Assembly: GCA_050743625.1 (NCBI GenBank) | Contig: JBOGED010000195.1 | Location: 1,643-65,642 of the forward strand | Direction of reading: 5' to 3' | Origin: Egibacteraceae bacterium | Lineage (GTDB): Bacteria > Actinomycetota > Nitriliruptoria > Euzebyales > Egibacteraceae | Length of the DNA: 64,000 nt | Part shown: positions 9,442-49,519 of the stretch, piece after piece | Layout of the letters: every line of letters starts with the position of its first letter | How positions within the stretch are numbered: the stretch's first letter is position 1 | Program-made: the position numbers and the translations under genes | Notes under the pieces: generated by a model | What the model saw: the letters and a program-made list of their open reading frames with translations, nothing else | What the model was told of the DNA's origin: nothing | Database searches by the model: none

Positions 9442-9705
9442 TTACCCGCGGGCGATGGCGACAGCTTTGCCGCCGTTCCCACCGTTGGCCTTGGCAACGC
9501 CGTTATTGCGGCAGCCAGCGTTGCCGAAGACGGCGATGTTGACCGCACACACGCCGACGCCCACGGCGGCCCCGCCGTTTCCGCCGTTACCGCCGACCGC
9601 AACCGCCGTGCCGGCGTTGGCCATTGGGATTAACCCGATCGTAATCATGCCCATCACGAGCAACACCATGAGGGCAACACGAAATTTCTTTAGCGCAACA
9701 GACAA
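9442..9705 (-). CDS. Small secreted Gly-rich two-Cys peptide (single module)
   Basis: 87 aa. Signal peptide ending in PMANA. Mature part GTAVAVGGNGGNGGAAVGVGVCAVNIAVFGNAGCRNNGVAKANGGNGGKAVAIARG. Confidence 0.75.
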   Translation of the reverse strand: MSVALKKFRVALMVLLVMGMITIGLIPMANAGTAVAVGGNGGNGGAAVGVGVCAVNIAVFGNAGCRNNGVAKANGGNGGKAVAIARG

Positions 9706-31466: not shown

Positions 31467-32848
31467 CCGCGATCGTCGAGCCCCGGCCTGTCCCCCCGCT
31501 CACGCCGCCGCGTTCGGTCCCGCCGCTCTTGATCGCCAAGCACAAGCTCGACACCGACCTGAAGGTTCTCGCAGTCGAGAGCGGTGGGGCGCCCCTGGTG
31601 CAGCTACGGCTGTGGGTGCCGTTCGCGGGGCCCCCAGCAGGAGCTGGGGAGGAGGGCCTGGACGCTGTCGACGCGTCCGGCTCCAGCGAGGCCGACACCG
31701 CGCGCGCGACGTTGCTCGCCAGGACCTTGCTGTCCGCCACACAGCGGCGGAGTAACGCCGAGCTGGCCACGGCGTTCCAGGCGCTGGGGGCCACATTGCG
31801 TGTTGGGGCCGACCCGGACGGCCTGCTATTCACGGGCAAGGCGCTCGCGAGCAGCCTACGGGACCTGCTAGAGCTGCTCGCTGAGGTGCTGACCTCCGCT
31901 ACCTACCCCGAGGATGAGGTCGCGGGAGAGCGTGCCCGCGTTGTGGAGGAGCTCACGATGGCGCGGTCGGCGCCGTCGGTGCTGGCCAGCGAGGCACTGC
32001 TACGACGCATGTTCCGCGGTCATCCCTACGCATGCAAGGTGCCCAAGCCCGAGCAACTGGCGGAGACGCGTCCAGACGACCTGCGGCGCCAACACGCGGA
32101 AGGCGTGCTGCCGGACGGGAGCACGCTCGTGCTCGTGGGTGATGTGCCGGCTCACCAGGCGCTGGCTCAGGCCGCTGAGGCGCTGTCCGGCTGGAACGCC
32201 GTGGGATCGACTCCTGTGGCGCCAGCCGTGCTGGCGCCGGAGCCCGGCCCCGTCCTGCTCGTGAACCGGCCGGGCTCGGTTCAGTCGTCCATCCGCATGG
32301 GCGGCCTGGCGTTGCCGCGGTCGGATCCCGACTACGCCGCCTTGAAGCTGGCGAAGACCATCTTCGGCGGCTACTTCGCATCCCGTCTGGTGGAGAACAT
32401 CCGCGAGGACAAAGGCTACGCCTACTCACCACACTGCGTGATCCGGCACGCGGTAGCGGGCTCTACGCTGCAGCTCGGAGCAGACGTGGCTAGCCAGGTC
32501 ACCGCCCCCTCGCTGCTGGAGATCGCCTACGAGCTGGGTCGCATGGCAACCCTGCCAGTGGGCGCCAACGAGCTGGAGAACGCTTGCCAGTACGCGATCG
32601 GCACGCTCGCGCTGGAAACCACGACGCAGGGCGACCTCGCCGACAAGATCGTTGCGCTGGAGGCCAGCGGGCTCGGCCCCGACTGGCTGGATGAGCACTC
32701 GCGCCGCTTGGCAACGGTAACGGTCGAGCAGGTGATGGAGCAGGCGGCCCGCTTCCTCGCGCCTATGCGGCTCGTGACGGTCGTCCTAGGCGACGCCAAC
32801 GTGGTCGAGCCGTCGATGCGCACACTCACCGAGGTCACACGGGGTTAA
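31463..32848 (+). CDS. M16-family peptidase, non-catalytic partner subunit
   Basis: Same fold and length as the upstream gene but without HxxEH; the equivalent region reads ARATLLARTLLSATQ. The GTG overlaps the upstream stop codon (GTGA). Confidence 0.8.
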   Translation: MTAIVEPRPVPPLTPPRSVPPLLIAKHKLDTDLKVLAVESGGAPLVQLRLWVPFAGPPAGAGEEGLDAVDASGSSEADTARATLLARTLLSATQRRSNAELATAFQALGATLRVGADPDGLLFTGKALASSLRDLLELLAEVLTSATYPEDEVAGERARVVEELTMARSAPSVLASEALLRRMFRGHPYACKVPKPEQLAETRPDDLRRQHAEGVLPDGSTLVLVGDVPAHQALAQAAEALSGWNAVGSTPVAPAVLAPEPGPVLLVNRPGSVQSSIRMGGLALPRSDPDYAALKLAKTIFGGYFASRLVENIREDKGYAYSPHCVIRHAVAGSTLQLGADVASQVTAPSLLEIAYELGRMATLPVGANELENACQYAIGTLALETTTQGDLADKIVALEASGLGPDWLDEHSRRLATVTVEQVMEQAARFLAPMRLVTVVLGDANVVEPSMRTLTEVTRG

Positions 32849-34518: not shown

Positions 34519-34556
34519 GCACCGGCCGTGGCGTGGTTGGTCGCCACGGCCGGTGC
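34519..34556 (+). terminator. Perfect 15-bp stem hairpin downstream of the LtrA-like gene
   Basis: GCACCGGCCGTGGCG-tggttggt-CGCCACGGCCGGTGC. Confidence 0.6.
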
Positions 34557-34985
34557 TGCCGCTGCCAGCCGACCGGAGGGGGGCCGGTCGAGTGGCCGAA
34601 CCAGGCGTCTCGCCGGTTCTTCGGGAGGTTTGCGTGTCCTTTAGTGGTCTTGATCATGGACGGCGGGCCAAGGCTTGGGGCACCCCCGACGGCGTTTCGC
34701 AAGGGACGTCAACCAAACCTAGGGCTTGCGGTTGCGTGTTTTCCGTTCGAGCGAGGACCCACCCCGTCCGCAGCCCGGCAATTCGTGGTTTCGTCCCTTC
34801 CGCCCGCGCGTTACGGTCGTAGCCCGCTGTGTAGTTGTAGCTCTCCCGTTCGCCGGCTGCAACACTGTGCGGCGACACGTTCTTGTTGTGTTCGCCGAGG
34901 TCTTACGGGTGCGAGTCATCGGCGTCTTGCGTACGATAGAAGCTCGCGGCGGGGCATAGCTGGCGAGCGCGCGGGGCTTGAGCGG

Positions 34986-36164
34986 ATGGGCGAGAACGAT
35001 GCGGAAACAGCGGGTGTGGGCGGGCGCGCCCGGATGGAAGGCGGTGAGATTCCCCGCGTGAGCTACACCGATCTCTTGGCGGCGATCGCGGCGTTCGGTC
35101 TTCCCAACGCGTCGACCGCGCTACCGGGCGTCCCGCTTGCTCCCGCGCAATGGCGGCGGCTTATGGAGGGCACCGCGGCGGCGCGCCTGAGTGGTCATCT
35201 CGTCGAGGCCATTGACTCCAAAGCATTCGCCGTGACCGCTGAGCAGGCCCGGCAGGCGGCAGAGCTTCATCGCAAGCTGACGTGGCGGGTACTGGGGCTC
35301 GAGCGGCGGTTGCTGGAGGTGGCCGGGCTGCTCAGTGCGCTCGGTATCGAGATGCGCGTGTTGAAAGGGCCGGCGCTCGCCCGCACGTGCTACCCAAAGG
35401 TGTCCGCGCGCACCTTCGCCGACGTCGACGTGCTCGTGCCGGCGGATCGGTTCGACGAGGCGGGGGCGGCGCTGGCGGATGCGGGCTGCGCACGCACCCT
35501 CCCGCAGCTTCGGGAAGGGTTTGACCGACGGTTCGGGAAGAACGCGACGTTCGTCGGTCTCGATGGCTTACAGGTCGACGTGCACCGCACGTTCGTCGTC
35601 GGTCCCTACGGGCTCCTGATCACCCTCGAGGACCTGTTCGCCACGCACGAGTCATTCGCCCTTGGCGGGCGCATGCTGAAGGCGTTGGGCACCGAGGAGC
35701 AGTTCCTCAACGCCTGTTACCACGCGGCGTTGGGTGACGTGCCTCCGCAGCTGAGTGCCCTCCGTGACGTCGCCCAGATGCTCCTCGGCGCCAAGCTCGA
35801 CGTCGACCGCGCCCGTCGGCTCGCCGAAGCATGGCGGGGAACGGCCGTCCTGGCTCGGGCGGTCGCGTTGACGTGGCGAACGCTTCGCCTGAGCGAGCAG
35901 CCCCCGCTTGCCGTATGGGCGCGAGGGTTCACCCCCACCAGGTGGGATCGGCGGCTGCTCACCTGCTATGTGTCCGCGAACCGGAGCAACAGCCTGAAGT
36001 ACCTCGCGTCCGCGCGTGTCATCCCCGGCACGGGTGCCAAGCTCGCGTACCTGCGAGGACTCCTGCTTCCCGACCGCGCGTTCCTCGCGCGGCGGAGAGT
36101 GGCGTACGGTGCCTGGTGGCACCACGGCGCGATGGGGCTTCTGGGGCGGGAGCCGAAGCGATGA
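34986..36164 (+). CDS. Nucleotidyltransferase-family protein of the type found in RiPP/lasso clusters (PF14907-like), copy 1
   Basis: FADVDVLVPADRFDEAGAALADAGC is an NTase-fold motif. It is a paralogue of 44353..45540 and similar in length once the implausible 150-aa N-terminal extension of the track ORF is removed. Its stop codon overlaps the next start (ATGA). Confidence 0.7.
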   Translation: MGENDAETAGVGGRARMEGGEIPRVSYTDLLAAIAAFGLPNASTALPGVPLAPAQWRRLMEGTAAARLSGHLVEAIDSKAFAVTAEQARQAAELHRKLTWRVLGLERRLLEVAGLLSALGIEMRVLKGPALARTCYPKVSARTFADVDVLVPADRFDEAGAALADAGCARTLPQLREGFDRRFGKNATFVGLDGLQVDVHRTFVVGPYGLLITLEDLFATHESFALGGRMLKALGTEEQFLNACYHAALGDVPPQLSALRDVAQMLLGAKLDVDRARRLAEAWRGTAVLARAVALTWRTLRLSEQPPLAVWARGFTPTRWDRRLLTCYVSANRSNSLKYLASARVIPGTGAKLAYLRGLLLPDRAFLARRRVAYGAWWHHGAMGLLGREPKR

Positions 36165-36955
36165 TCGTATCGCTGTACCTGTTCACGACAGCGTGGCTCG
36201 AGCGGTTCTTCCGCATCGTGAAGGCCTGCTTCGACGGGGTCTGGCTGGGAGTGCTGAGCAGGGAACGGCTGCACGCCATCGACGCCTTGTACTACCACCG
36301 GGAGAAGCGGTACGCCGACGAGGAGTACAACCGTGGCGGACTTTGGCCGTGGGAGCAGGCCGCGCTCGACCGGTTCTTCGTGGGCTGTACGCGTGTCGTG
36401 GTGACTGGCGCGGGGGGCGGCCGTGAGGTCCTCGCCCTGCGCAAGCTCGGCTACGACGCCATCGGGTTCGAATGCAACCCTCAGCTCGCCGCCATTGGCG
36501 ATCGGCTCCTGGCCTCCGAAGGCCAACCGGGGCGGCTCTCACCGGCGCCCCGGGACGCCTGGCCCGGCACGGCGGGTCCCTGCGACGGCGTCATCGTCGG
36601 CTGGGGGTCGTACATGCTCATCCAAGGGCGCGCGCACAGGGTGGAGTACCTGCAAGGGGCCCGAGCGTGCCTGCCCGAGGGTGCCCCGATCCTCGTCTCG
36701 TTCTTCGCGCGTGGTGGAACGCCGATCTCTCTGCGAATCGTGGCGGTGGTCGGGAGCGCCTTGCGAAAGGTTCGAGGTCAACCTCCCGTAGAGATGGGCG
36801 ACGCGCTCCAACGTAATTATGTGCATTACTTCACGAGAGCCGAGATCGTCGACGAGCTTGCCGAAGGTGGTTTTGCGCTCGAGTTTTACGACACGAAGGA
36901 CTACGGGGTTGCGATTGCTCGTGCGGTCAAGGGAGAGCGAGATGAGCATGATTAA
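36161..36955 (+). CDS. Class I SAM-dependent methyltransferase
   Basis: Motif I VVVTGAGGGREVLALRKLGYDAIGFECNP. Translationally coupled on both sides. Confidence 0.75.
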   Translation: MIVSLYLFTTAWLERFFRIVKACFDGVWLGVLSRERLHAIDALYYHREKRYADEEYNRGGLWPWEQAALDRFFVGCTRVVVTGAGGGREVLALRKLGYDAIGFECNPQLAAIGDRLLASEGQPGRLSPAPRDAWPGTAGPCDGVIVGWGSYMLIQGRAHRVEYLQGARACLPEGAPILVSFFARGGTPISLRIVAVVGSALRKVRGQPPVEMGDALQRNYVHYFTRAEIVDELAEGGFALEFYDTKDYGVAIARAVKGERDEHD

Positions 36956-37202
36956 GGTCCGTGACGGCGCCGCCGTGTGGCGCGAGATCGAGGGAGAAAC
37001 GATCCTGCTTGCGCTCAAGGCGTCTGTGTACCTAGGGCTTAACCACACAGGAACGATACTCTGGGAGACGATGGTCGGCGGGACGACCTCGGACAACCTC
37101 ACCGATCTCCTCGTAGCGCAATTCGCCATCGACCGCGAGGATGCGGCGTCGGACGTCGCCGCCTTTGTCGACGGATGCCGCGCACACGGATTGCTCGAGT
37201 AG
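36942..37202 (+). CDS. PqqD-family RiPP recognition protein (lasso B1-like)
   Basis: 86 aa: MSMIKVRDGAAVWREIEGETILLALKASVYLGLNHTGTILWETMVGG..DREDAASDVAAFVDGCRAHGLLE. This has the typical PqqD/RRE length and pattern. Confidence 0.8.
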   Translation: MSMIKVRDGAAVWREIEGETILLALKASVYLGLNHTGTILWETMVGGTTSDNLTDLLVAQFAIDREDAASDVAAFVDGCRAHGLLE

Positions 37203-37210
37203 CCGGCACC

Positions 37211-37651
37211 ATGGCGGCGCCCGCGGAGCGGTTGACAACGGTGAGGGTCCTGTTTACGGCATGCTCGGTAGAGATCGCGATCCGTGCGCTGCCGATTCCT
37301 CGCTTCGTTCGCCTACTCGGGGTCACGCTTGCCACTGACGAAGGCGGCATCCCCCCAGAGCCGGCGACCGCTCCCGCGCTGTCGACGTTCGACCCCATCG
37401 AGCGCCGCCGGATACGGGCAGTGCTACGGGTTATGCGGCGTTGGCCTTTCGGGCGAGGCTCTTGCCTGCGCCAAGCCCTGCTGCTCGGCCACTTCCTTCG
37501 CGCGCGCCACCCGGTATTGCATCTCGGGGTGGCGGGACGCGGTGAGGAGATGGCTGCCCACGCGTGGATCGCGGTGTCAGGCGTCACCATCGGCGGCCTG
37601 GAAGGGTTTCTCCCGCTGATCGGTCGAGCGGGCGGTGATGAGGCGGGATGA
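37211..37651 (+). CDS. Lasso peptide biosynthesis B2 protein (transglutaminase-like Cys protease)
   Basis: RRWPFGRGSCLRQALLLGHFLRARH..LHLGV....AAHAWIAVSG carries the catalytic Cys and His in the spacing typical of PF13471-type B2 proteins. Confidence 0.8.
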   Translation: MAAPAERLTTVRVLFTACSVEIAIRALPIPRFVRLLGVTLATDEGGIPPEPATAPALSTFDPIERRRIRAVLRVMRRWPFGRGSCLRQALLLGHFLRARHPVLHLGVAGRGEEMAAHAWIAVSGVTIGGLEGFLPLIGRAGGDEAG

Positions 37652-37829: not shown

Positions 37830-39653
37830 GTGAGCGCGCCCATCGACGAGCTTTTTGGGCCGGTGAGCCGTAAACCGATCAAGCGGCTGCCCAGGCTCGT
37901 CGGTCAGGCGGTGGTGCTGGTGTGGCGGGCCGCCCCACGCCAATTCGCGCTGTCCGTGGTCTCGCAGGTTGGCGCGGGCTTGGGGCTCGCCGGCCAGTTG
38001 CTCGCCGGGCGGCGGCTGCTGGCGAGCGTACTTGCTGGCCAAGGGCTCAACGCAGTGCTCGACGACCTGGTGTTGCTCACGATCTTCACCGCGCTCGTGT
38101 CCTTCGCGGGGATGGCCCGGACGGAGCAACAACGGATCTTGAGTGAACTCGTCGCGAAATACGCAACGAATAAGGTGATCGAGGTCGCTTCCGCTGTCGA
38201 CCTCATCGCCTATGACGATCCCCAGTTTCACGACCGCTTTCAACGCGCCCGCATGAATGCCGCCGTGCGCCCTCTCCAGATGGCGAGCGGTGTTCTCGGC
38301 GTGCTCAGCGCGACAGCTGCCATCGCGGGCATTAGCCTCGCCCTGTTCGCGCTTGAGCCGCTATTCCTTCTGCTCGTCCTGGTCGCCTACATCCCGGTGT
38401 GGCTCGCGACGGCGCGTGGAAGCAAGCTCATTCATGCCTTTTCAGTACAACAAACCGCGCGTGACCGTCGCCAGGCATACCTCTGTCACATCCTGACGGA
38501 GAAGGACGCCGCCAAGGAGATGCGGACGTTCGACCTCCATGTCCCTCTCCGGCGCCGGCACGATCAGCTCATCGACGAGAAGCTGACGTATCTGCGTTCG
38601 GTGACGCGGCGCCGACTCCTGCTCGGGCTGGTGGCGAACGTCGCGACCGCGGCACTGACCGCCGCGAGCCTCGCCGTGTTGGTGGGGTTCGTCACGACGG
38701 GGCGTCTTACGCTCGCCTCCGCGGGGGCCGCGGCCGGTGCCATCGTCTTGCTCGGCCAGCGGCTGCAGGCGTTGACCAGCGGCGCGGGAGCGATCTATGA
38801 GAGCGCGCTCTTCCTAGAGGACTTCACGGGTTTTGTCGACATAATGCCCGCATTGCGCGCCGCGCGGCCCACCGCCTTGCCCCCACGCTGGCGAGTCCTT
38901 CGCGCGGAGCACGTCAGCTTCCGCTATCCCGCGCGCCAAGAGCCGAGTCTCCGCGATGTCTCGATCGAGATCCGCGCAGGCCAGGTCGTCGCCCTCGTCG
39001 GCGAGAACGGTTCGGGAAAGACGACGCTTGCGAAGATCTTGGCAGGGCTCTATGCCCCCTCCTCGGGCAGCGTGACGCTCGACGGTGCCGACGCCCGCGC
39101 GGTGGACCCGGCGCGCTGGCGCGACAGCCTCGGCGTGCTGTTCCAAGACTTCATGCGCTACCACTTCTCCGCGGGAGAGAACATCGGCCTCGGCCGGCAC
39201 GAGCACAGCGATGATCAATCCAGGATCCACCGGGCCGGCCGCGAGGCCGGTGTGGACGAGATGGTCGCGCGGCTGGAGCACGGATACGACACGCTGCTTG
39301 GACCCGAGTTCTACGGGGGCAGCGACCTGTCCGGGGGCCAGTGGCAACGCCTTGCCCTCGCCCGCGTGTTCTTCAGGGACGCGCCATTCCTGATCCTCGA
39401 CGAGCCGACCGCCGCGCTCGACGCGCGCGCCGAGGCCGCGCTCTTCGAGCGCGTCCGCCTGCTGTCGCGCGGCCGTTCCGTGCTCCTCATCTCGCACCGA
39501 CTCGCGAGCGTCCGGTCCGCTGACCGCATCTATGTGCTCGCTCACGGGCGAGTCGTCGAACAGGGCACTCACGACGAGCTGATCGCGCAAGGAGGGCTGT
39601 ACGCCGAGCTATTCAAGCTTCAGGCGTCAGCCTATCTCGGCCAAAAAGCCTAA
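37830..39653 (+). CDS. ABC exporter, fused permease-ATPase (lasso D-type)
   Basis: TM domain followed by Walker A GENGSGKTT, signature LSGGQWQR and Walker B FLILDEPTAALD. Confidence 0.9.
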   Translation: MSAPIDELFGPVSRKPIKRLPRLVGQAVVLVWRAAPRQFALSVVSQVGAGLGLAGQLLAGRRLLASVLAGQGLNAVLDDLVLLTIFTALVSFAGMARTEQQRILSELVAKYATNKVIEVASAVDLIAYDDPQFHDRFQRARMNAAVRPLQMASGVLGVLSATAAIAGISLALFALEPLFLLLVLVAYIPVWLATARGSKLIHAFSVQQTARDRRQAYLCHILTEKDAAKEMRTFDLHVPLRRRHDQLIDEKLTYLRSVTRRRLLLGLVANVATAALTAASLAVLVGFVTTGRLTLASAGAAAGAIVLLGQRLQALTSGAGAIYESALFLEDFTGFVDIMPALRAARPTALPPRWRVLRAEHVSFRYPARQEPSLRDVSIEIRAGQVVALVGENGSGKTTLAKILAGLYAPSSGSVTLDGADARAVDPARWRDSLGVLFQDFMRYHFSAGENIGLGRHEHSDDQSRIHRAGREAGVDEMVARLEHGYDTLLGPEFYGGSDLSGGQWQRLALARVFFRDAPFLILDEPTAALDARAEAALFERVRLLSRGRSVLLISHRLASVRSADRIYVLAHGRVVEQGTHDELIAQGGLYAELFKLQASAYLGQKA

Positions 39654-39658
39654 AAGAA

Positions 39659-39692
39659 TGCAGCTTTCTTTCGTAGATGGAGGAAAGCTGCA
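39659..39692. terminator. Family C hairpin between the convergent ABC and precursor genes (likely bidirectional terminator)
   Basis: TGCAGCTTTCtttcgtagatgGAGGAAAGCTGCA, the same hairpin family as at 21689, 21751 and 60552. Confidence 0.5.
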
Positions 39693-39711
39693 TTTAGGTC
39701 TACGTGCGAAT

Positions 39712-39867
39712 TTATCCAGAAAGAAAGACTTGGGCCCCCACAAGCCCGTCGACCAGGCTGCTGAACTGGTCTTGGCCTCTCCCGATCTTGTTGAACGGCT
39801 GCTGGGCCGTCAGCTCATGCACTGACCCCAGCTCGACTATCCTTGGGGATTCGTACGAGATGGTCAT
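39712..39867 (-). CDS. Lasso-type RiPP precursor peptide (51 aa)
   Basis: MTISYESPRIVELGSVHELTAQQPFNKIGRGQDQFSSLVDGLVGAQVFLSG. The leader fits the Y-x-x-P-x-(L/I)-x-x-x-G-x5-T pattern of lasso leaders. It lies within a PqqD/B2/ABC/kinase neighbourhood. The longer track ORF (39903 start) adds 12 residues. Confidence 0.6.
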   Translation of the reverse strand: MTISYESPRIVELGSVHELTAQQPFNKIGRGQDQFSSLVDGLVGAQVFLSG

Positions 39868-39953: not shown

Positions 39954-40847
39954 TTGTTGCGGGCGGGGACACCATTGCGAACAAGAGAACCGGTCGGGGC
40001 ATATGGGTTATCTCTCACGGGCCTCGACCATGCCGGTAGAGTTCTGCAACCGGCGCCGGCCGACTGGGAACCCATGCGAGTCATTCATAAAATCGGCGCG
40101 CCGGGCCGTGAAGGCGCTCGTTGCATGGTCGGGCGAGACCGGGCTGAGTGGCTCATACAAGATGGTCCGTCCATCGTCGTCGATCGGGCCACGGCATCAG
40201 TCGTGATCACCGCTTCCTCGCCGTTGCGTGTCGATGCGCTGGTGCATCCCTACCTCGCCTTTCCCGCGGCGGTGTCCAGCTACTGGGCTGGCCGCTGTTC
40301 GCTGCACGCCGGTGCGCTCGCCGTCGACGGGAAGGTATGGGCACTGGTAGGCCAGAAAGGAGGCGGGAAGAGCTCGACGCTTGGGTGGTTCGCGCAGCGG
40401 GGCCACAGCGTCGTCACCGACGATCTGCTCATCATCGACCACGGGCGTGCCCTCGCCGGTCCGCGATGTATCGACCTTCGTGAGGAGGCCTCCCGCGATC
40501 TGGGAGCAGGCGAGGATCTGGGTGTTATCGGCATGCGGACGCGGTTTCGCGTCCGGCTCGGTCCGGTCCCTCCATGTCTACCCCTTGCGGGCTGGATCTT
40601 TCTCTCATGGGCGGACAAGCTGCATGTGGAGGCCATCCCCCCTGGCGAGCTGCTCAGGAGGATCTTCGCCAATCAGGCGTTGAGCCTCATCCCTCCCGAT
40701 CCGCACGTGTACCTCGATCTCGCCTCGCTTCCCGCTTGGGCGGTAGGGCGGCCTCGACGGCTGGACGCGCTTCCCGCGGTTTCCCGGCGCATCCTTGACC
40801 TCATCCAAGAGTGTGCTGAGACAACCACGCAGACTGCAACAGGCTGA
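39954..40847 (+). CDS. HPr-kinase-related (HprK-like) P-loop kinase
   Basis: P-loop ALVGQKGGGKSSTLGWFAQRGHSVVTDDLLII resembles the HprK C-terminal domain. The start is uncertain. The 3' end overlaps the convergent AsnB-like gene. Confidence 0.65.
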   Translation: MLRAGTPLRTREPVGAYGLSLTGLDHAGRVLQPAPADWEPMRVIHKIGAPGREGARCMVGRDRAEWLIQDGPSIVVDRATASVVITASSPLRVDALVHPYLAFPAAVSSYWAGRCSLHAGALAVDGKVWALVGQKGGGKSSTLGWFAQRGHSVVTDDLLIIDHGRALAGPRCIDLREEASRDLGAGEDLGVIGMRTRFRVRLGPVPPCLPLAGWIFLSWADKLHVEAIPPGELLRRIFANQALSLIPPDPHVYLDLASLPAWAVGRPRRLDALPAVSRRILDLIQECAETTTQTATG

Positions 40848-41907
40848 GGGTGCGACCGTCTGGTGGGTTCGACGCCCAGGTCCGCCGGAGGGCGGCAACA
40901 TCGACCAGGGACGAGTCGATCCCCATGCCATCCCACGCGCGGATAAACTCCCGCGTCCGGGGACCCCATATGGCCTCGTCGAACGCTGCCTTCGAGCCGC
41001 GCGCCAGGACAGAGGAGGGCAGGAGGTCGGCGAAGAATCGCGTCATGACCGTCGTTCGGTCCTCGAAGCCGGCCGCCCCACCAGCTTTCGCGAACGCGGC
41101 GATGACGCTCGGTGCCATGAACGGGTTCCGGACGCGTACGTCGACGGGGGCGGCGAGCGTTTCGAGCGCGCGGACGCCCGCTTGGAAGTCGCGGCTGCGC
41201 CACCACGCGTCGAGGCCGCGATCCCAGCGCTGCGGCCAGCTCGCCTCCCAGGCGGCGAGCTCCCAGGAGGCCTCAGCGGCTGCCTTGGGCAAAAGCCAAG
41301 GCAGCGCATCCGCCTGCCTTCGGTAGGCCACCCGAGCGCGGATCCCGCGCGGTGACGCGGCGAGGATCAGGCGCGGGAGGTCGCGGGGGACCGGCCGGAC
41401 CCGCCCAGCCAGGAGCCTCGCGACCCGCGAGCCGCTCGACCCGAACATCTGGTCGCCACCGATCCCGGTGAGCAACGAGCCGCCGCGAGCACTCTCGAGG
41501 AGCGGGAGGTGCGCGTAGGCGTTGGGAGGAAACAGGAGCCCGTGGCGATCGAGCACACGCGTCGCGACGGGGCCGAGCGCCTCCAGCTCGCCACGGACCT
41601 CGATGCGGAGCCAGTCGACCAGGCCGAGATGCGCGACCACCAGCTCCTGCCACTCGGTCTCGTCCGTACCCGCGGCGTCGGGATACCGGAAGGTCGCGGG
41701 GACAGGGAGCGGCAGGCCCTCTCGCCGCGCCACGTCAACCGCGACCGCGAGGACCGTAGACGAGTCCCGGCCTCCAGAGAAGCTCACCAGGCAAGGCGGC
41801 CTGACCAGCGCCGATCGGACCACTTTCTGGACCGCGGTGATCGGGCTCTCCTCGACGGCGGCATGCCCGCGCAGCCTCGGCACGGTCGGATCGGTGCCGA
41901 TGAGCAT
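40801..41907 (-). CDS. Asparagine-synthetase-related PP-loop ATPase lacking the N-terminal glutaminase-like domain (short lasso-cyclase-like), copy 1
   Basis: The PP-loop motif VSFSGGRDSS lies only about 45 residues from the proposed start (ATG 41907). The track ORF start at 42024 lies inside a family A repeat and is rejected. It is a paralogue of 62857..64000. Confidence 0.7.
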   Translation of the reverse strand: MLIGTDPTVPRLRGHAAVEESPITAVQKVVRSALVRPPCLVSFSGGRDSSTVLAVAVDVARREGLPLPVPATFRYPDAAGTDETEWQELVVAHLGLVDWLRIEVRGELEALGPVATRVLDRHGLLFPPNAYAHLPLLESARGGSLLTGIGGDQMFGSSGSRVARLLAGRVRPVPRDLPRLILAASPRGIRARVAYRRQADALPWLLPKAAAEASWELAAWEASWPQRWDRGLDAWWRSRDFQAGVRALETLAAPVDVRVRNPFMAPSVIAAFAKAGGAAGFEDRTTVMTRFFADLLPSSVLARGSKAAFDEAIWGPRTREFIRAWDGMGIDSSLVDVAALRRTWASNPPDGRTLSLLQSAWLSQHTLG

Positions 41908-41956
41908 GCCGACGGCGATGTCGAGGGGACGCGGCTCGGGTCTCGCGACCCCGCAT

Positions 41957-42003
41957 CGTGCAGAGTTATGCCGGTGTACCGGCATAACTCTGCACAGTGC
42001 AGG
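41957..42003. repeat. Family A palindromic hairpin between the GT4 and AsnB-like genes
   Basis: CGTGCAGAGTTATGCCGGTGTACCGGCATAACTCTGCACAGTGCAGG. Confidence 0.8.
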
Positions 42004-42020: not shown

Positions 42021-43160
42021 TCACCGACCATTGAGCACCTCGTCGTAGAGGTCCTCCAAGCGCCGGACGGCGTGGGCAATCCGGAAGCGCTTGGCGCTTT
42101 GCCGGGCCTGCGCCGCCATCTCGGCGCGCTGCCCGGGATCCCTCAACAGGCTGTCGATGGCGTTCGCCATGAGTGCTGGCTGGGCGGGTGGGACGAGGAG
42201 GCCTTCACGCCCGTCCGTGACGACCTCAGGGACGCCGCCCGTGGTGGTGGCGACGGCGGGTACGCCGGCCGCCAAGGCCTCTATGAGCGCCAGCGACAGG
42301 CCCTCGTAACGGGAGCTGATCACGAAGGCGTCGAACGCCGGCAGGATCTCCTGGACATCGTCGCGACAACCGGTGAACATCACGCGCTCGCCGATGCCGG
42401 CCGTGACGGCGTGAGCCCGCAGGCGTGCCTCAAGCGGCCCACTGCCGACCAGGACGAGACGCAGCCGTGGGTGATGGCCCGCCACCTGGCGCACGGCCTC
42501 GAGCATCGTGCGGTGGTCCTTGGCCGGGGTAAAGCTGCCGACCGCGCCGAGCACCACGTCGCCGTCGGCGAGCCCTAGCGTGCGGCGGGCGAGGGCGCGT
42601 GCCTCGGGTCCGCTCCGGACGAGCGCCTCGTCGATACCGTGATGCAGGACCTCGACGCTCGGCATCGAGACCCAGAACATCCACCGGGGCGGTCGGATCG
42701 AGTCCGCCACCCCCTGTGAGATGGCCACAACCGCGGCGTTCCGCCCGTACGTCGCCGCGTTGACCAGGTAGGTCGGCAACCGGTAGCGCGGCCACACGCT
42801 GTGCTCGGTATGCATGAGGATCGGGCCTGCCCGAGCGAGTGCGATCCGGGCAACGCTGGCGGGCAGCGGGCTATGGGTATGGACGACGCCGAAATCCCCT
42901 GTGCGCACGAGCCGGCGAAGGCGCCATACCCAGGAAAGGTCTGGCAGAACCCCACCCTCGAGGCAGTGGACGGCAAGGCCGCGACCGCGGATCTCCTCGA
43001 CGAACGCGCCCTGGTGGGGCAATAGGTAGGCGACCTCGACGTGGACGCGCTCGCGATCGAAATACGGGGCGGACGCGCTGATCAACCGCTCCATTCCTCC
43101 CCGTCCCAGGCCCTTGGTGAGCAGGAGCACACGTACCGGGCGGGCCCTCGTCATGGACAA
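42021..43160 (-). CDS. Glycosyltransferase family 4 (GT-B, RfaG-like)
   Basis: N-terminal VLLLTKGLGRGGMERL. The C-terminal motif EGLSLALIEALAAGVPAVATTTGGVPEVV is the typical E-x7-E region. Confidence 0.85.
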   Translation of the reverse strand: MSMTRARPVRVLLLTKGLGRGGMERLISASAPYFDRERVHVEVAYLLPHQGAFVEEIRGRGLAVHCLEGGVLPDLSWVWRLRRLVRTGDFGVVHTHSPLPASVARIALARAGPILMHTEHSVWPRYRLPTYLVNAATYGRNAAVVAISQGVADSIRPPRWMFWVSMPSVEVLHHGIDEALVRSGPEARALARRTLGLADGDVVLGAVGSFTPAKDHRTMLEAVRQVAGHHPRLRLVLVGSGPLEARLRAHAVTAGIGERVMFTGCRDDVQEILPAFDAFVISSRYEGLSLALIEALAAGVPAVATTTGGVPEVVTDGREGLLVPPAQPALMANAIDSLLRDPGQRAEMAAQARQSAKRFRIAHAVRRLEDLYDEVLNGR

Positions 43161-44356
43161 GGTGGAGCACCTTCACCCGAGGCATCACGGAGCGCCCGTG
43201 CGACCGGCTCCGCGTGAGCGTGGAGGCTCATGACGGCCTTGGCCAATCGGTCGATCTGCTCGTCCCTCATGTGTGACCAGAGAGGCAAGGAAAGTACGCG
43301 TGCGGCCGCATCCTCGGTGACCGGAAGCGGGCGGCGAGGTGGCTCGCCGGCATAGCACCGCTGCCGGTGGACGGGGGGATGGTAATAGCGTCGCGAGTCA
43401 ATCCCCTCGCGGCGCAACGCCACGCCGAGGGCTTCGGCGCCGAGCCCGAACCCGCCAGCTGAGATGAGCATGGTCATGTCCTTGAAGGTCGACACGTCGC
43501 CGGGATCGACTGCGGGGAAGGTGCATCCCGGCAGTCCGTGAACCGCGCTCCGGAAGCGCTCGACGAGCTCAGTGCGGCGAGACACCCGCGCATCCAGACC
43601 CCGCAAGGAGGCCAGCCCGATCGTCGCGTGCAGCTCTGACATCCGGGCGTTGAGCCCGGGGAACAGGCAGTCATAGTCGCCGGGATTCCCGTAGTCCCGT
43701 CCAAGACGCACCGTCTCCGCGAGCCCGCCGTCGTTCGTGGCGACCAACCCACCCTCACCGGCGACGACGACCTTCGTCGGGCTCAGGCTGAAGACCTCCG
43801 CTGTCCCGAACCCGCCGATCGCTCGCTGGCGACGCCGGCTGCCGAGGGCGTGCGCCGCGTCGTAGACCAGCGGGAGCCGGGCCGCGTCAGCCTGCCTCTG
43901 CAAGCCCTCGACGTCGCAGGGGGTCCCGTAGAGATGCACCGCCATGATCGCGCTCGCTCCACCGGCGCCGAGCGCCGCCGATGCGGGATCCAGCGTGAGC
44001 GTCTCCGGGTCGATATCCGCCCAGTCCGGGCTGCCGCCCGCCCAGCGGATCGCATGTGCGGTCGCCGAGAACGTGAAGCTGGGTACCACCACACGGCCCC
44101 AGGCGTTCACGGCTTGCAGGACGAGCATAAGCCCTGCGGTGCAGCTCGAGGTGGCCACCACATGGCGGACGCTGAGATAGGCGGCGGCCGTCTCCTCAAG
44201 CCGGCGGACGACCGGGCCGTTGGTGAGCATGCCGCTGGCGAGAACCGATTCGAGCGCTCGGGCAATGCTCGGCACGTCCTGGATCGCCGGGCGAACGAGG
44301 GGGAGGCCCTCTGGGAAGGCAGGATCACCGCCGAGGATCACTGGGCGGCGCGTCAT
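43151..44356 (-). CDS. DegT/DnrJ/EryC1/StrS-family PLP-dependent sugar aminotransferase (PglE-like)
   Basis: The proposed start MTRRPVILGGDPAFPEG (ATG 44356) overlaps the upstream stop codon (ATGA). The PLP-lysine region reads FSLSPTKVVVAGEGG. The 108 upstream residues of the track ORF are rejected. Confidence 0.85.
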   Translation of the reverse strand: MTRRPVILGGDPAFPEGLPLVRPAIQDVPSIARALESVLASGMLTNGPVVRRLEETAAAYLSVRHVVATSSCTAGLMLVLQAVNAWGRVVVPSFTFSATAHAIRWAGGSPDWADIDPETLTLDPASAALGAGGASAIMAVHLYGTPCDVEGLQRQADAARLPLVYDAAHALGSRRRQRAIGGFGTAEVFSLSPTKVVVAGEGGLVATNDGGLAETVRLGRDYGNPGDYDCLFPGLNARMSELHATIGLASLRGLDARVSRRTELVERFRSAVHGLPGCTFPAVDPGDVSTFKDMTMLISAGGFGLGAEALGVALRREGIDSRRYYHPPVHRQRCYAGEPPRRPLPVTEDAAARVLSLPLWSHMRDEQIDRLAKAVMSLHAHAEPVARALRDASGEGAPPCP

Positions 44357-45540
44357 GGCCGCCTCCGCGAGCACACGACGGACGAGAGGCCGCGTCCTAA
44401 CCAGCGGAGCCGGTGCTGCCCGTGGTGAGCGAGCCACGCGGGATCGGGCAGGACAAGGGCTCGCATGAACGCCGCCTTGGAGCCAACGCCCTCTATCGCC
44501 TGCAGGGTGTCGAGGGCCCGATGGGCGTATCGCCGGCTTCGGTAGCCCGCGAGAAACCGTTGTTCCCTCCTGCTCGGCGTATACCGGTGAGCCCAGACAG
44601 ACAGGGGCACCGCGTCGGACAGCGCGAGCCGCTCCCACGACAGCCGTACCGCGAAGGCAAGCGCCCCTTCGGCGGCCCACGCCCTCGCCATCTCGAGCAC
44701 GCGGTCGGTGTTCAGCATGTCGGCCAGCACGTGCTGAGCGACATCCCGGAGCCGTACCAGGCGCGGGGGGACGCCAAGCGCCGCCTGATAGCAGGAGTGG
44801 AGAAAGTGCGCCTCAGGCGGCAGCGCCATGATCGGCCTGCTCCCGACCGAGAACACCGTCGCATCGTGGAACAGGGAGTCGAGCGGGATGGTCAGGCCGA
44901 ACGGACCGGAAATCAGGTTGCGGTGCAGGTTGATGGACATCCCGTCAGCCCGCGAGAGTGTGACGGCCATACCGAACGTCTCGTCGAAGCCTGGCCGTAA
45001 TGTCGGTGACCCGCGTTGGTACCCGAGCGCCATCAGCACATGCAGCGCCGTATGGAGCTGCGCTTGCGGTACGAGCACGCCAACGTCCCGGTAGGGACGT
45101 GCCGCAGGATCTGGGTAGGCGAAACGGGCCGTCGCCGCGCCGTTGAGGGCCCGCGATGCGATGCCGGCCCGGTTGAGCGCCTCCACGGCCTCCAAGAGCC
45201 CGGCCTCGCGCAACAGCACCCCACCCGTCGCCCGCGCATGCAGCTGGCGCGCCCCCCGGGCCTGCTCACGGGTCGCGGGCAACGCCTGCGACGCGATCGC
45301 GTGGAGCAGCAGCCCGCTGAGCCGATGCTGGTCGACCTGTGACAGGAAGTACCGCCAGCGCGCATCCTCCAAGAGCTCTGCCGGCCAAGCTAGCCGGGAG
45401 CCCGGTAAACCCGCGGCCGCCGTGGCATGCAAGAGACGCCCGATCGCGCTGGCGTGGGCGGGAGAGGCGGACCCGGCGGGATTGTGTGAGGGATAGGCGA
45501 CATATAGGTCGCGTATCCCGCACACAGGGAATCCGGCCAT
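44353..45540 (-). CDS. Nucleotidyltransferase-family protein (PF14907-like), copy 2, embedded in the polysaccharide operon
   Basis: YRDVGVLVPQAQLHTALHVLMALGYQR is an NTase motif. It is collinear with 34986..36164 (for example DVAQHVLADML versus DVAQMLLGAKL). It is translationally coupled at both ends. Confidence 0.7.
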   Translation of the reverse strand: MAGFPVCGIRDLYVAYPSHNPAGSASPAHASAIGRLLHATAAAGLPGSRLAWPAELLEDARWRYFLSQVDQHRLSGLLLHAIASQALPATREQARGARQLHARATGGVLLREAGLLEAVEALNRAGIASRALNGAATARFAYPDPAARPYRDVGVLVPQAQLHTALHVLMALGYQRGSPTLRPGFDETFGMAVTLSRADGMSINLHRNLISGPFGLTIPLDSLFHDATVFSVGSRPIMALPPEAHFLHSCYQAALGVPPRLVRLRDVAQHVLADMLNTDRVLEMARAWAAEGALAFAVRLSWERLALSDAVPLSVWAHRYTPSRREQRFLAGYRSRRYAHRALDTLQAIEGVGSKAAFMRALVLPDPAWLAHHGQHRLRWLGRGLSSVVCSRRRP

Positions 45541-47288
45541 CAGGCGTCGTGGCCGTTGAGCGGCGTGGACGCGGGTGCCGCCATGCGGGCGTGGTTATCC
45601 GGTTGCGTCCCATGGCCAGGGTTGCCGTACTGACGGCCTGGCGCCGCGCCGTGCCCTGCGGCCACCCCGACGAGCACCACACCCAGGACCGGGGCCTCCA
45701 GCCGGCCGAGGAGCTCTCTGGTGAGCGCGGCGGACTCGGCGGTCGTATACCCACTCCGGGCGACGACCACCACCGCGTCAGCATGGGGGATGAGCGCCGC
45801 GGGGTCGTTGACGCCCAGCATCGAGCCCGCGTCGATGATGACGATGTCGGCGATCTCGCTCGCCTCCCTGATCAGGGTCTGGTCCGAGCGCAAGATCTGA
45901 CCGAGCCTCGCGAGCTGTCGCCCGCTTGGCACGATCCACACGCCGCTGATGTCGGTCTGCTGGGCCAGCGTCGACAACGAGGTCTTCTCCGAGTCCCGCA
46001 GCAGGAAATCCGCCACACCCGGATGGGGCAGGGCGCCGAGGTACCGATGCGCTCCCGGATTGCGAAAGTCGCAATCCAACACAAGCACCCGCGTACCGAT
46101 CTCTGCGAAGCTGGCGGCAAGGTTCGCGACGGTGCTGGTCTTGCCCTCGCCCGTGCTGGCAGAGGTGACAAGCACGACGCTGGGGGGCGTCCCTTTAGTC
46201 TCACGAGACGCGGTGGCCAGCTCCGACGGGCCTGGCGGATGCCCGCTGCCGGGCGGTTGTGGGGCCAGCACCCAGCGTGGCATGAGCTGCAGTGACAGGC
46301 GCAAGGCCGTGTACGCCTCCGCCGTTTGCGACCGAGGATCGGAGCGGACGATGACTGCGTGGTCGGATAGCGCACGGGATGGGAGGCGAGGGACCTCCGC
46401 GACGACCGGGAGGCCAAATGCGTGCTCGACACTGCCGCGTGTCCGCAGCCGGCTGTCGACCCGATCGAGCCGGTAGGCCAGCGCAAGCCCCAGCGCGAGC
46501 CCCATGACCGCCCCGATGGCGATGCGGGCGGCCAAGCTGGCCGGGGGTCGGATACCCTGCTGGGTCGGGATGGGGATCGCCTCTTGCAAGGTGTAGAGCC
46601 CTCCCATCGCCGCCTCCGCCCCGGAGAGCTGCTCGATCCGCCGCAAGGTGGCGCTGTACTCACCTTGGAGCGCGTCCCGCTCGGTCAGCGTGACCTGGTA
46701 CTGGGCGTCCGCCCCCAGCGCGACTGTCAGGTTCGCGGGGGACGCCACCGCCGCGATCTCTTGCAGCCTTCTCGCGACGTCAAGGCTGAGGTCGCGGATT
46801 CGCTCCTCCTGAGAGCGCCGCAGCCTTTCGGCGCTCTCGAGCGCGGCTTGCCGCGCCTCCTCGGCCTCGGCCCGCACGTAGCGCACCGCCTCCTCCGCGA
46901 GCGTGTTCGCGAGCAGAGCGGCGAGCGTGGGGTCCTCATCTTCGGCGGTCAACGACAGGATGCCGGTCTCTGGATCGCCGGTGGCGATGACCTTGCTGGC
47001 GAGCTCCGCCGGCTCGAGGCCCACGCCGAGCCGCTCGGCGGCGGCGGTCGGGATCGGCCCTGTGGCGATCAGCAGAGCGAGCACGTCCAGCCCGATCGCA
47101 TTGCCCTCGCGCTCCGGCAGGGCGTCCTGGACCAACAGGTGGGTCGCCGAGTAGATGACGGGCTCGGGCTCCCGGGGCGTGGTCAGCCAGGCGACGACCG
47201 TAGCCAGCTGGAGCGAGAGGAGCACCACTGGCCACCTACGGCGCAGGATCCTCAGATAGTGAACGGGTCCCATTACCGCACCTGTCAA
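45540..47288 (-). CDS. Polysaccharide co-polymerase / BY-kinase-like protein (Wzc-like: Wzz domain plus P-loop ATPase)
   Basis: N-terminal TM helix, coiled-coil and second TM helix, then Walker A SASTGEGKTSTVANLA and VLVLDCDFRNP. No obvious C-terminal Tyr cluster; there is only one Tyr in the tail. Confidence 0.8.
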   Translation of the reverse strand: MTGAVMGPVHYLRILRRRWPVVLLSLQLATVVAWLTTPREPEPVIYSATHLLVQDALPEREGNAIGLDVLALLIATGPIPTAAAERLGVGLEPAELASKVIATGDPETGILSLTAEDEDPTLAALLANTLAEEAVRYVRAEAEEARQAALESAERLRRSQEERIRDLSLDVARRLQEIAAVASPANLTVALGADAQYQVTLTERDALQGEYSATLRRIEQLSGAEAAMGGLYTLQEAIPIPTQQGIRPPASLAARIAIGAVMGLALGLALAYRLDRVDSRLRTRGSVEHAFGLPVVAEVPRLPSRALSDHAVIVRSDPRSQTAEAYTALRLSLQLMPRWVLAPQPPGSGHPPGPSELATASRETKGTPPSVVLVTSASTGEGKTSTVANLAASFAEIGTRVLVLDCDFRNPGAHRYLGALPHPGVADFLLRDSEKTSLSTLAQQTDISGVWIVPSGRQLARLGQILRSDQTLIREASEIADIVIIDAGSMLGVNDPAALIPHADAVVVVARSGYTTAESAALTRELLGRLEAPVLGVVLVGVAAGHGAAPGRQYGNPGHGTQPDNHARMAAPASTPLNGHDA

Positions 47289-49207: not shown

Positions 49208-49519
49208 TTGAGTATTCCGCCTCACGACCAGGCCACACGTGTTGCCGCCACCCGCCCCATAGCCGACATGTCTCGCCCGCTTTCCGCCCCGCTTGGTACT
49301 GGTGGTCCACAGTACCTCCCGCATCGCCCTCGCCAGCTTAAGCCGCAAATCCGTTCCGTCAATAGCCATCGAGTAGTAACCCGTGTGGGCCAATGGCGAC
49401 ACATGCGTCGCCAATGCTCCTCAAAGACACATCGGAGTTTTTATATATGTTCACGTCTTGCCGTGGACGCAGTGAGCTGATGCGGTACCATCCAGCGGGC
49501 GGGATTGGGCGTATGAATA

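Follow-up and report, generated by a model that had tools for sequence, protein, structure and literature searches.

A 64,000-nucleotide stretch of contig JBOGED010000195.1 from an Egibacteraceae bacterium (this whole stretch is called the window below) encodes on its minus strand, at 39712–39867, a 51-residue precursor peptide of lasso type, within a gene set that is that of kinase-associated lasso clusters. Positions 7–9 of its predicted core, from which canonical lasso rings are closed, hold neither Asp nor Glu. The core has Lys27 placed exactly six residues before Asp33 (K-x5-D), and this spacing recurs in most of the related cores that we collected. Our best reading, to which we would give about an even chance of being correct, is that the leader peptidase B2 would cleave after Ala21 and that a short asparagine-synthase-like (Asn-synthase-like) enzyme, acting as a cyclase, would join Nε of Lys27 to the side chain of Asp33.

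The proposed pathway would begin with the binding of the YxxPxL leader by B1, a PqqD-type protein, followed by B2 cleavage two residues beyond Thr20. The Asn-synthase-like enzyme would then adenylate the side chain of Asp33, which would be attacked by the ε-amine of Lys27 and not by the N-terminal α-amine, giving a side-chain-to-side-chain macrolactam of 7 residues and 26 atoms (K-I-G-R-G-Q-D). The product would keep a short free N-terminal tail, QQPFN, in which Gln1 may become pyroglutamate, and its 18-residue C-terminal tail may be threaded through the ring. A serine would be decorated by the HprK-like kinase and the NTP_transf_5 enzyme, as PsmK and PsmN do for pseudomycoidin, and the ABC transporter would export the product. 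On a wider scale, we suggest, with confidence a little short of even, that this is a widespread family found in at least about 200 actinobacterial species-level genomes, with 26- or 29-atom rings closed by a Lys ε-amine, with tails on both the N- and the C-terminal side, locked by disulfides in many members and made by a minimal single-domain cyclase. It would represent a new class of lasso topology and a new substrate logic for the cyclase.

The precursor and its relatives

Residues 5–21 of the peptide match the NCBIfam model NF033521 ('lasso RiPP family leader peptide-containing protein'; RiPP, a peptide made on ribosomes and modified post-translationally) at 23.7 bits against a cutoff of 19, and the leader reads Y5-x2-P8-x-I10-x3-G14-x5-T20-A21. 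A preliminary description of this DNA, made from the letters alone, had located the 51-residue open reading frame (ORF) correctly and had called it a lasso-type precursor with Thr at −2. The call stands, since the leader model is matched and genes for B1, B2, kinase, NTP transferase, ABC exporter and Asn-synthase-like enzyme are adjacent; the core it predicted, starting QQPF, was also right, although its leader string dropped Ala21. In the definition now in use, the α-amine of residue 1 of a lasso peptide is joined to Asp or Glu at position 7–9 (PMC9266682). Counted from Gln22, the acidic residues of the core are Asp12 (D33), as described before, and Asp19 (D40), which had been given as 20, so a canonical ring is indeed impossible from the Thr(−2) site. 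Counting from the internal glycines, which puts Asp at 5/12 and 3/10, had also been done correctly. The conclusion drawn there, that no choice of start brings an acid to 7–9, is valid for canonical first residues but not in general, as Asp33 becomes position 9, 8 or 7 if the core begins at Phe25, Asn26 or Lys27.

Judged by its homologues, the ORF is not a chance one: a 98%-identical protein of 51 amino acids is on record (the sole match of a word-index protein search), an exhaustive HMMER search of 1.84 billion representatives gave 8 matches including 7 more distant peptide homologues, and ORFs with the leader motif are found in nearly all related kinase loci. A better precursor ORF elsewhere in the locus, a possibility raised in the preliminary description, was looked for, and no other ORF of the 64-kb window contains the leader motif.

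The related loci were collected via the kinase, which has 334 homologues in the protein collection; a profile built from 30 of these found 211 relatives in species-representative genomes, of which the best 80 loci were compared. Their hosts are nearly all metagenome-assembled genomes (MAGs) of Thermoleophilia (Gaiellaceae, Solirubrobacterales), Acidimicrobiia and other Actinomycetota, the sole cultured strain among them being Solirubrobacter taibaiensis KCTC 29222 (locus L062). One to three small ORFs with the motif Y-x2-P-x-[LIVMF]-x3-G-x5-T-x are present in 77 of the 80 loci, mostly about 100–150 nucleotides upstream of the kinase gene and divergent from it, as in the window. Together with the 7 peptide homologues from the exhaustive search, these loci yielded 103 unique cores, which were aligned on the predicted cleavage site. 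Since Thr had to stand at one fixed place of the leader motif demanded by the search, precursors with other spacings lie outside the sample. ORF starts are uncertain in these GC-rich loci. The conservation of Tyr at −17, Pro at −14, Gly at −8 and Thr at −2 is thus imposed by the search motif, while Leu at −3, a position that the motif left free, is found in 92 of the 103 sequences.

Over the 80 loci, the Asn-synthase-like gene is present in 74, a PqqD gene in 66, an ABC gene in 60 and a small B2 gene (~118 residues) in 65, the last according to an iterated hidden Markov model (HMM) search. BLASTP with the window B2 at 1e-5 had found no B2 anywhere, and the idea of B2-less clusters was dropped on the HMM result. 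In the cultured Solirubrobacter strain the order is A(−), K(+), C'(−), B2(−), B1(−), NTP_transf_5(−), ABC-2 permease(−) and ABC ATPase(−), C' being the short Asn-synthase-like enzyme. The NTP_transf_5 family (PF14907) also lies within the operons of this locus and of L040 and L060, two loci to which we return below.

A fixed distance between lysine and aspartate

K-x5-D is present in 83 of the 103 unique cores, compared to 7.65 expected when each core is shuffled, and in 8 further cores the Lys is found 7 residues before the Asp (K-x6-D). Other Lys–Asp spacings are rare, except x4, which arises from KK doublets. The consensus around the pair is [D/N]-K-x-x-G-x-[S/P/T]-D-G-F-T-F. Counted from the Thr(−2) site, the conserved Asp, usually followed by Gly-Phe-Thr-Phe, stands anywhere from core position 8 to 26 and the Lys from 2 to 20. 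Since the distance from Thr(−2) to Asp varies so widely while that from Lys to Asp is fixed, insertions and deletions are tolerated before the Lys and not between Lys and Asp. The subfamily of the window peptide (12 sequences, [F/L/I]-[N/T]-K-[I/V]-G-x3-D) repeats this pattern on a small scale. Alignment of these homologous small ORFs, as the preliminary description had proposed, gives Lys27, Gly29, Asp33 and Gly44 as the sole invariant core residues, the Lys having gone unnoticed there, and gaps are confined to the stretch between the leader end (Thr20 +2) and Phe25.

The presence of the pair is related to the possibility of a conventional ring. Only 32 of the 103 cores have Asp or Glu at positions 7–9; 68 of the other 71 carry K-x5/6-D, while among the 12 cores without this motif 9 have an acid at 7–9 (Fisher p = 0.0012 for acid at 7–9 versus K-x5/6-D over all 103). 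At least five of these nine are textbook canonical (GNIHGNVSD, GSLRGNASD, AGLSGSSGD, GVTGTIAD and AEATGTESD), and since their Asp stands exactly 8 or 9 residues after the site, they support the Thr(−2) cleavage rule within the family. In the cyclase tree, the Lys-less cores of loci L078–L080 neighbour Asp9 cores that have retained the Lys (L050, L057). In L040 and L060, both 20-kb loci, the precursor, kinase, B2, B1, NTP_transf_5 and ABC genes are kept, but the cyclase slot is empty or held by another gene. The Lys/Asp pair is missing from their cores (DGTGFHPIAHHS and GGGLPGFPGQPGQGGQPGNSWHHGSW), which retain a Ser near the C-terminus; presumably the products are linear decorated peptides. 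Loss of the Lys only where a canonical α-amine ring is possible, and loss of both residues where the cyclase is missing, are accounted for if the cyclase joins Lys to Asp.

The geometry is also consistent with such a bond. A ring closed from Lys Nζ to Cγ of Asp(i+6) consists of 26 atoms and one formed from K-x6-D of 29 atoms, and canonical rings span 22–29 atoms, the 8-residue Glu ring having 26. Closure from the α-amine would give 37 atoms with Asp12 and 79 atoms with Asp26.

Alternative rings

Thirteen loci contain two or three Lys-type precursors, and no second cyclase homologue turned up in these 13. The Asp positions differ within 11 of them, with combinations such as 9 and 20, 9 and 18, 10 and 16, 12 and 26, or 10, 10 and 13, and K-x5-D alone is constant. 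Likewise, the 89%-identical cyclases of L025 and L047 accompany cores with Asp at 10 and 11. These loci bear directly on the possibility of an oversized ring, in which B2 would cleave after Ala21 and the α-amine of Gln22 would be joined to Asp33 in a ring of 12 residues and 37 atoms, probably branched-cyclic and unthreaded. Such a product would need known lasso chemistry only, no acidic residue of the core comes before Asp33, and the atypical cyclase, short and divergent as it is, might have relaxed its control of ring size. However, a single cyclase would then make, for example, both 9- and 20-residue rings from one locus, and rings of 8 to 26 residues across the family. Changing the ring size of a lasso peptide by one residue is reported to lower production markedly (2026 review, PMC13352647), which makes such tolerance unlikely. 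The invariant Lys at Asp−6 would also be left unexplained. Of 75 extended cores 20 begin with Gln, more than with any other residue, and Gln at the N-terminus is prone to pyroglutamate formation, which blocks the α-amine, so that its prevalence fits a free, pyroglutamate-capped end better than a nucleophile. We therefore consider an oversized α-amine ring very unlikely. It is the loci with one cyclase and several Asp positions that also speak against the 'unprecedented ring size' offered as one option in the preliminary description.

The cysteines provide a second line of evidence. In 40 cores the Lys is preceded by exactly one Cys and the tail contains one, and 49 cores have no Cys at all, the window peptide being among the Cys-free ones; there are only two exceptions, one of them cut by a contig end. 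The first Cys of the 40 two-Cys cores is at K−4 in 21 and at K−2 in 16. So strict a pairing suggests that a disulfide would tie the N-terminal extension to the tail, and hence that the product retains the extension. This is at odds with a two-step proteolysis, in which the extension would be removed after or instead of the B2 cleavage and the α-amine of Phe25 would close a 9-residue ring on Asp33 (8 residues from Asn26, 7 from Lys27). Such trimming would cost 23 of the 40 two-Cys cores their first Cys, which lies at least four residues before the Lys, leaving an unpaired Cys in the tail. What speaks for a second cleavage is, apart from these suitable ring lengths, that members combining Asp9 with Gly, Ala, Ser or Cys as their first residue look canonical, that an unusual first residue is known (Asn1 in metanodin; PMC12670498), and that pseudomycoidin can be made without B1 and B2 (PMC6993621), so host proteases can share in leader removal. 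However, no conserved Thr or other motif precedes a second site, K−2 being highly variable (F, C, Q, W, I, L), and the leader-to-ring distance would have to vary by up to 17 residues although the Tyr-to-Thr spacing is constant in every precursor recovered, in 77 of the 80 loci. Neither is a second protease conserved in the loci, and the M16 peptidases encoded in the window are absent elsewhere. Two-step proteolysis thus seems unlikely to us.

Joining of Lys27 to Asp33 by the cyclase, in turn, accounts for the fixed spacing, the variable extension, the multi-precursor loci and the Cys pairing together.

The Asn-synthase-like enzyme

The putative cyclase (394 residues) is 100% identical to a protein on record as 'asparagine synthase-related protein' at NCBI (P0129). 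It has 1604 homologues, and the best 120 of these are all 375–450 residues long. The PP-loop, F82-S-G-G-R-D-S88 (containing SGGRDS), is invariant; it lies near residue 83 and aligns to about residue 250 of the NCBIfam Asn-synthase and lasso-cyclase models. A confident AlphaFold2 model calculated from 48 sequences has a mean predicted local distance difference test score (pLDDT) of 93.7 and a predicted template modelling score (pTM) of 0.91. A sequence search against chains of the PDB gave nothing meaningful, whereas Foldseek with the model gave as best PDB matches TsnB9, human asparagine synthetase, carbapenam synthetase and beta-lactam synthetase, at E-values of 2e-7 to 2e-4, template modelling (TM) scores of 0.37–0.51 and 12–18% sequence identity; no solved lasso cyclase was among the matches. 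According to the model, the enzyme belongs to the carboxylate-adenylating, amide-forming Asn-synthase fold, of which it is a single-domain member. Lys-less canonical cores are accompanied by the short form too, as in L078, where the B2 gene starts about 390 codons upstream of the cyclase stop. The missing N-terminal domain is therefore a trait of the family and not tied to the Lys.

Several observations weigh against the proposed Lys27–Asp33 bond. The NCBIfam lasso-cyclase models score the window enzyme at only 37 bits against a cutoff of 300 and 12 bits against 525, and about 175 N-terminal residues of these models have no counterpart in it; with an enzyme so short and divergent, the reaction is less certain than for a canonical C protein. 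We know of no lasso cyclase that uses a Lys side chain, and for the Lys-less members this enzyme family would need the α-amine as nucleophile. The bond is predicted from sequence conservation, and the 80 loci are mutually related and were found with one kinase profile, so the counts above are not counts of independent events. Fifteen cores, in which the Lys is residue 2 or 3 and the Asp residue 8 or 9, are compatible with both a Lys-closed and an α-amine-closed ring, and, as discussed above, the window peptide would have an α-amine ring of 9, 8 or 7 residues if a second protease made Phe25, Asn26 or Lys27 its first residue. Locus L018 contains a K-x5-D precursor and a kinase with no cyclase within 10 kb. 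Finally, the Lys may be conserved for recognition, for target binding or for another modification.

The last of these points leads to the possibility that no Lys–Asp bond is made at all. The product would then be linear, or decorated with phosphate or sugar only, Lys27 and Asp33 would be kept for recognition, a salt bridge or target binding, and the enzyme would do other work, for example amidate Asp33 or serve the neighbouring polysaccharide pathway. The lack of the N-terminal domain and the scores far below the lasso-cyclase cutoffs would suit such a role, as would the embedding of the cluster in polysaccharide genes; L040 and L060 show that the kinase, B1, B2 and NTP transferase set can work on peptides that cannot be cyclised, and the peptide of L018 keeps its K-x5-D with no cyclase nearby. 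But synteny of the enzyme with A, K, B2 and B1 is kept in 74 of the 80 loci whatever genes surround them, the Lys-less members display the textbook substrate layout of a macrolactam cyclase (Gly or Ala at 1, Asp at 8 or 9), the Lys/Asp pair vanishes just where the enzyme is missing, and both spacings allowed between the two residues yield exactly lasso-sized rings. Overall, we regard the absence of a Lys–Asp bond as quite unlikely. The presence of the cyclase homologue in nearly all loci, and the loss of the pair in the cyclase-less ones, similarly make 'B2 cleavage only', the other way out considered in the preliminary description, improbable.

Kinase and phosphorylation site

The window kinase gives weak matches to the Pfam family Hpr_kinase_C and to TIGR04352. 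Residues H118, G138-K139-S140 and D156-D157 are invariant, and their spacing is that of the catalytic motif H148...K169-S170...D186-D187 of BsfK, which was validated by mutation (PMC10368454). The preliminary description had proposed the penultimate Ser as the target (Ser50; the window peptide ends in -LSG). At the level of the family this fits well, with Ser last or penultimate in 85 of the 103 cores, but in the window subfamily a terminal or penultimate Ser is found in only 5 of 12 sequences, while Ser or Thr at Asp+3 is found in all 12. Over the whole family the latter position holds Ser or Thr in 61 of 82 cores (the Thr of D-G-F-T-F). In the window peptide it is Ser36, encoded at 39760–39762, which on this alignment is a candidate for an alternative kinase site or else a structural residue. 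A lasso kinase can use such a position, as BsfK acts on a ring-proximal Ser (PMC10368454).

Neighbouring genes and further observations

The features of the window and of the two cyclase-less loci are collected in Table 1.

Table 1. Coordinates of the precursor, its parts, the neighbouring genes (positions in the window) and two cluster variants (positions in their own loci).
Feature	Position	Strand	Remarks
NTP_transf_5 nucleotidyltransferase (PsmN-like)	34533–36164	+	PF14907, 102 bits; longest ORF
Accessory ORF, 264 residues	36161–36955	+	VVTGAGGG (GxGxG) motif like S-adenosylmethionine (SAM) methyltransferases; no Pfam match
B1, PqqD-type RiPP recognition element	36942–37202	+	PF05402, 56.6 bits (cutoff 23.4)
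B2 leader peptidase (transglutaminase-like)	37175–37651	+	PF13471; NF033537, 59.1 bits (cutoff 33)
ABC exporter, fused permease and ATPase	37830–39653	+	PF00005 and MsbA-like models; convergent with precursor gene
Precursor gene	39712–39867	−	51 codons, stop at 39712–39714; translation MTISYESPRIVELGSVHELTAQQPFNKIGRGQDQFSSLVDGLVGAQVFLSG
Leader, residues 1–21	39805–39867	−	MTISYESPRIVELGSVHELTA; Tyr5, Pro8, Ile10, Gly14, Thr20 at −2, Ala21 at −1
Core N-terminal extension, residues 22–26	39790–39804	−	QQPFN; length varies among relatives
K-x5-D unit, residues 27–33	39769–39789	−	KIGRGQD; conserved; proposed isopeptide ring
Lys27 codon	39787–39789	−	AAG
Asp33 codon	39769–39771	−	GAC
C-terminal tail, residues 34–51	39715–39768	−	QFSSLVDGLVGAQVFLSG; Ser36 (Asp+3), invariant Gly44, penultimate Ser50
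HprK-like lasso-peptide kinase	39954–40847	+	longest ORF, TTG start; divergent from precursor gene
Short Asn-synthase-like enzyme (C'), putative macrolactam cyclase	40801–41985	−	PF00733; 394 residues; longest ORF reaches 42024
Polysaccharide genes	42021–49414	−	GT4, DegT aminotransferase, second NTP_transf_5, Wzc-like P-loop ATPase, Polysacc_synt_2
Second NTP_transf_5 gene, among polysaccharide genes	44353–45540	−	PF14907, 97.8 bits; cluster membership uncertain
Cyclase-less cluster variant, L040	9800–12500		
Cyclase-less cluster variant, L060	9800–12600		

The true start of the first NTP_transf_5 gene is probably later than that of the longest ORF, with the domain at residues 204–447. B1 likely starts at Met42 of its longest ORF (36819–37202), and lasso-specific PqqD models match it below their cutoff (43 versus 70). 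In B2, Cys97 and His129-Ala-Trp are conserved in 68 of 69 homologues. The accessory ORF of 264 residues has homologues in only four of the 80 related loci (L012, L043, L049 and L066); the cores of L043 and L066 are of the FNKIG type, near that of the window, while L049 has a related Cys-free type and L012 a different one.

Simple promoter and terminator scans around the precursor gene gave nothing above chance. Between the convergent ABC and precursor genes there is a perfect 12-nucleotide inverted repeat at 39657–39694 (AATGCAGCTTTC / GAAAGCTGCATT, with a spacing of 14 nucleotides), which resembles a shared hairpin terminator and is absent from the list of the simple terminator scan. Further upstream, at 26411–32848 on the plus strand, two ABC transporter genes are followed by two genes for M16 (insulinase-type) peptidases (30039–31466 and 31463–32848), and this group could be part of another peptide-processing system. 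The M16 peptidases (30039–32848) were considered as a second leader or extension protease and rejected, as they have homologues in none of the 80 related loci.

A few precursors and loci depart from the usual arrangement. P0123, a protein of 199 residues from the representative library, contains leader-like units in a tandem array of four (YEPPRLVSLGSVRELTQ... / YEPPAVERLGTLADLTAG...), with a short core-like stretch after every unit, and may be a multi-core or fused precursor. L034 has near 9499, on the minus strand, a second precursor-like ORF (GRCWFGEAGRWIGRVHLL...), which begins as the NGCYWGKQLGG type and then diverges, without K...D; it may be a frameshifted or decaying copy. In L022 (7953), L038 (2240 and 5151) and L075 (14580), extra ORFs with lasso leaders lie beside another B2-like gene and a few kb away from the kinase cluster. 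Some of these have His-rich or canonical Asp8/9 cores, which suggests independent lasso clusters nearby. In L018 (7000–13200), the precursor and kinase genes stand alone among flippase, GT2 and amine-oxidase genes of a polysaccharide locus, with no B1, B2 or cyclase gene within 10 kb.

Significance

Tools for genome mining and the engineering of lasso peptides rest on the rule of a 7–9-residue ring from the α-amine to Asp or Glu. If a Lys side chain is used in its place, any position within the core is open to the ring, the N-terminus is left free as a handle or as a second tail lockable by a disulfide, and a single-domain enzyme of 395 residues suffices for ring closure and would offer a compact cyclase for engineering. 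This would widen the chemical space of mechanically interlocked peptides and would explain why such precursors score poorly under position-7–9 rules. Should the Lys not act as the nucleophile, the invariant K-x5-D behind an extension of variable length would still be a rule for which any model of the family has to account. A handful of genes would suffice to test the prediction directly, and a related cluster is present in the cultured Solirubrobacter taibaiensis KCTC 29222.

Comparison with known systems

Beta-lactam and carbapenam synthetases use ATP and a PP-loop to adenylate a carboxylate and then form an amide, intramolecularly in both lactam synthetases. The chemistry proposed here for the window enzyme is of this kind, although TsnB9 and the two lactam synthetases differ from the window enzyme in that their substrates are small molecules and that they keep the N-terminal domain. 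Siamycin, sviceucin and BI-32169 are class I/III lasso peptides with disulfides, and members of the present family such as CEKAFGGSDGHTFQQIAIQCTSA, with Cys1, Asp9 and a tail Cys, resemble them (a Cys1–Asp9 ring tied to the tail). In most of the two-Cys cores, however, the first Cys is 2–10 residues before the Lys, within an extension of variable length, and the window peptide has no Cys.

In its gene content the cluster is close to those of paeninodin, pseudomycoidin and Bsf, with a YxxPxL...T precursor, an HprK-like kinase, split B1 and B2, an NTP_transf_5 'N' enzyme, an ABC exporter and an Asn-synthase-like enzyme. The psm cluster consists of C, A, K (HprK family), B1, B2, N (NTP transferase) and D; phosphorylation of the C-terminal Ser is carried out by PsmK, and adding a hexose to the phosphate requires PsmN (PMC6993621). 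The Ser found last or penultimate in most cores of the present family likens it to the PadeK and PsmK systems, in which the C-terminal Ser is phosphorylated. In pseudomycoidin-type peptides the ring is formed from the α-amine of residue 1 to Asp or Glu at 8 or 9, for example Ala1–Glu9 (PMC6993621), whereas in the window peptide the Asp is at core position 12 (8 to 26 in the family) and a Lys stands at Asp−6. The family also differs from the paeninodin-type clusters in its cyclase homologue, which has about 395 residues and the PP-loop near residue 83 instead of about 250 as in the NCBIfam lasso-cyclase models, and in its hosts, which are MAGs of Thermoleophilia, Acidimicrobiia and other Actinomycetota.

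Isopeptide bonds to a Lys ε-amine are known from class V lasso peptides (lariocidin B, gelatinamin A and the triculamin type), where Lys2, inside a Gly1–Asp8 ring, is joined to the C-terminal carboxylate by a clostripain-like transpeptidase (GelP) after the lasso has formed (PMC13178200). In our case the partner would be the ring Asp and the enzyme the Asn-synthase-like cyclase, and no clostripain-like transpeptidase was found in the scanned ORFs around the precursor, which cover part of the window, or in the conserved gene set; class V was therefore rejected as an explanation of the Lys, as both the bond partner and the enzyme differ. Graspetides, including the microviridins, contain Lys–Asp/Glu side-chain macrolactams (PMC13097080, PMC12848669), which are made by ATP-grasp ligases on leader-bearing precursors. 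Here the leader, B1 and B2 are of lasso type, and no ATP-grasp domain was found in the 20 window ORFs scanned or in L062.

A ring with Asn at position 1 was still called unprecedented in 2025 (PMC12670498). No description of the present family or its core motifs, of a Lys-closed or N-terminally extended lasso or of lasso peptides from Thermoleophilia was found in open-access papers and bioRxiv, so that a prior description elsewhere is possible. Judging from the sequences, we predict that the family shares its machinery and leader with the known lasso peptides, but uses a different nucleophile, attains a different topology and relies on a minimal cyclase.

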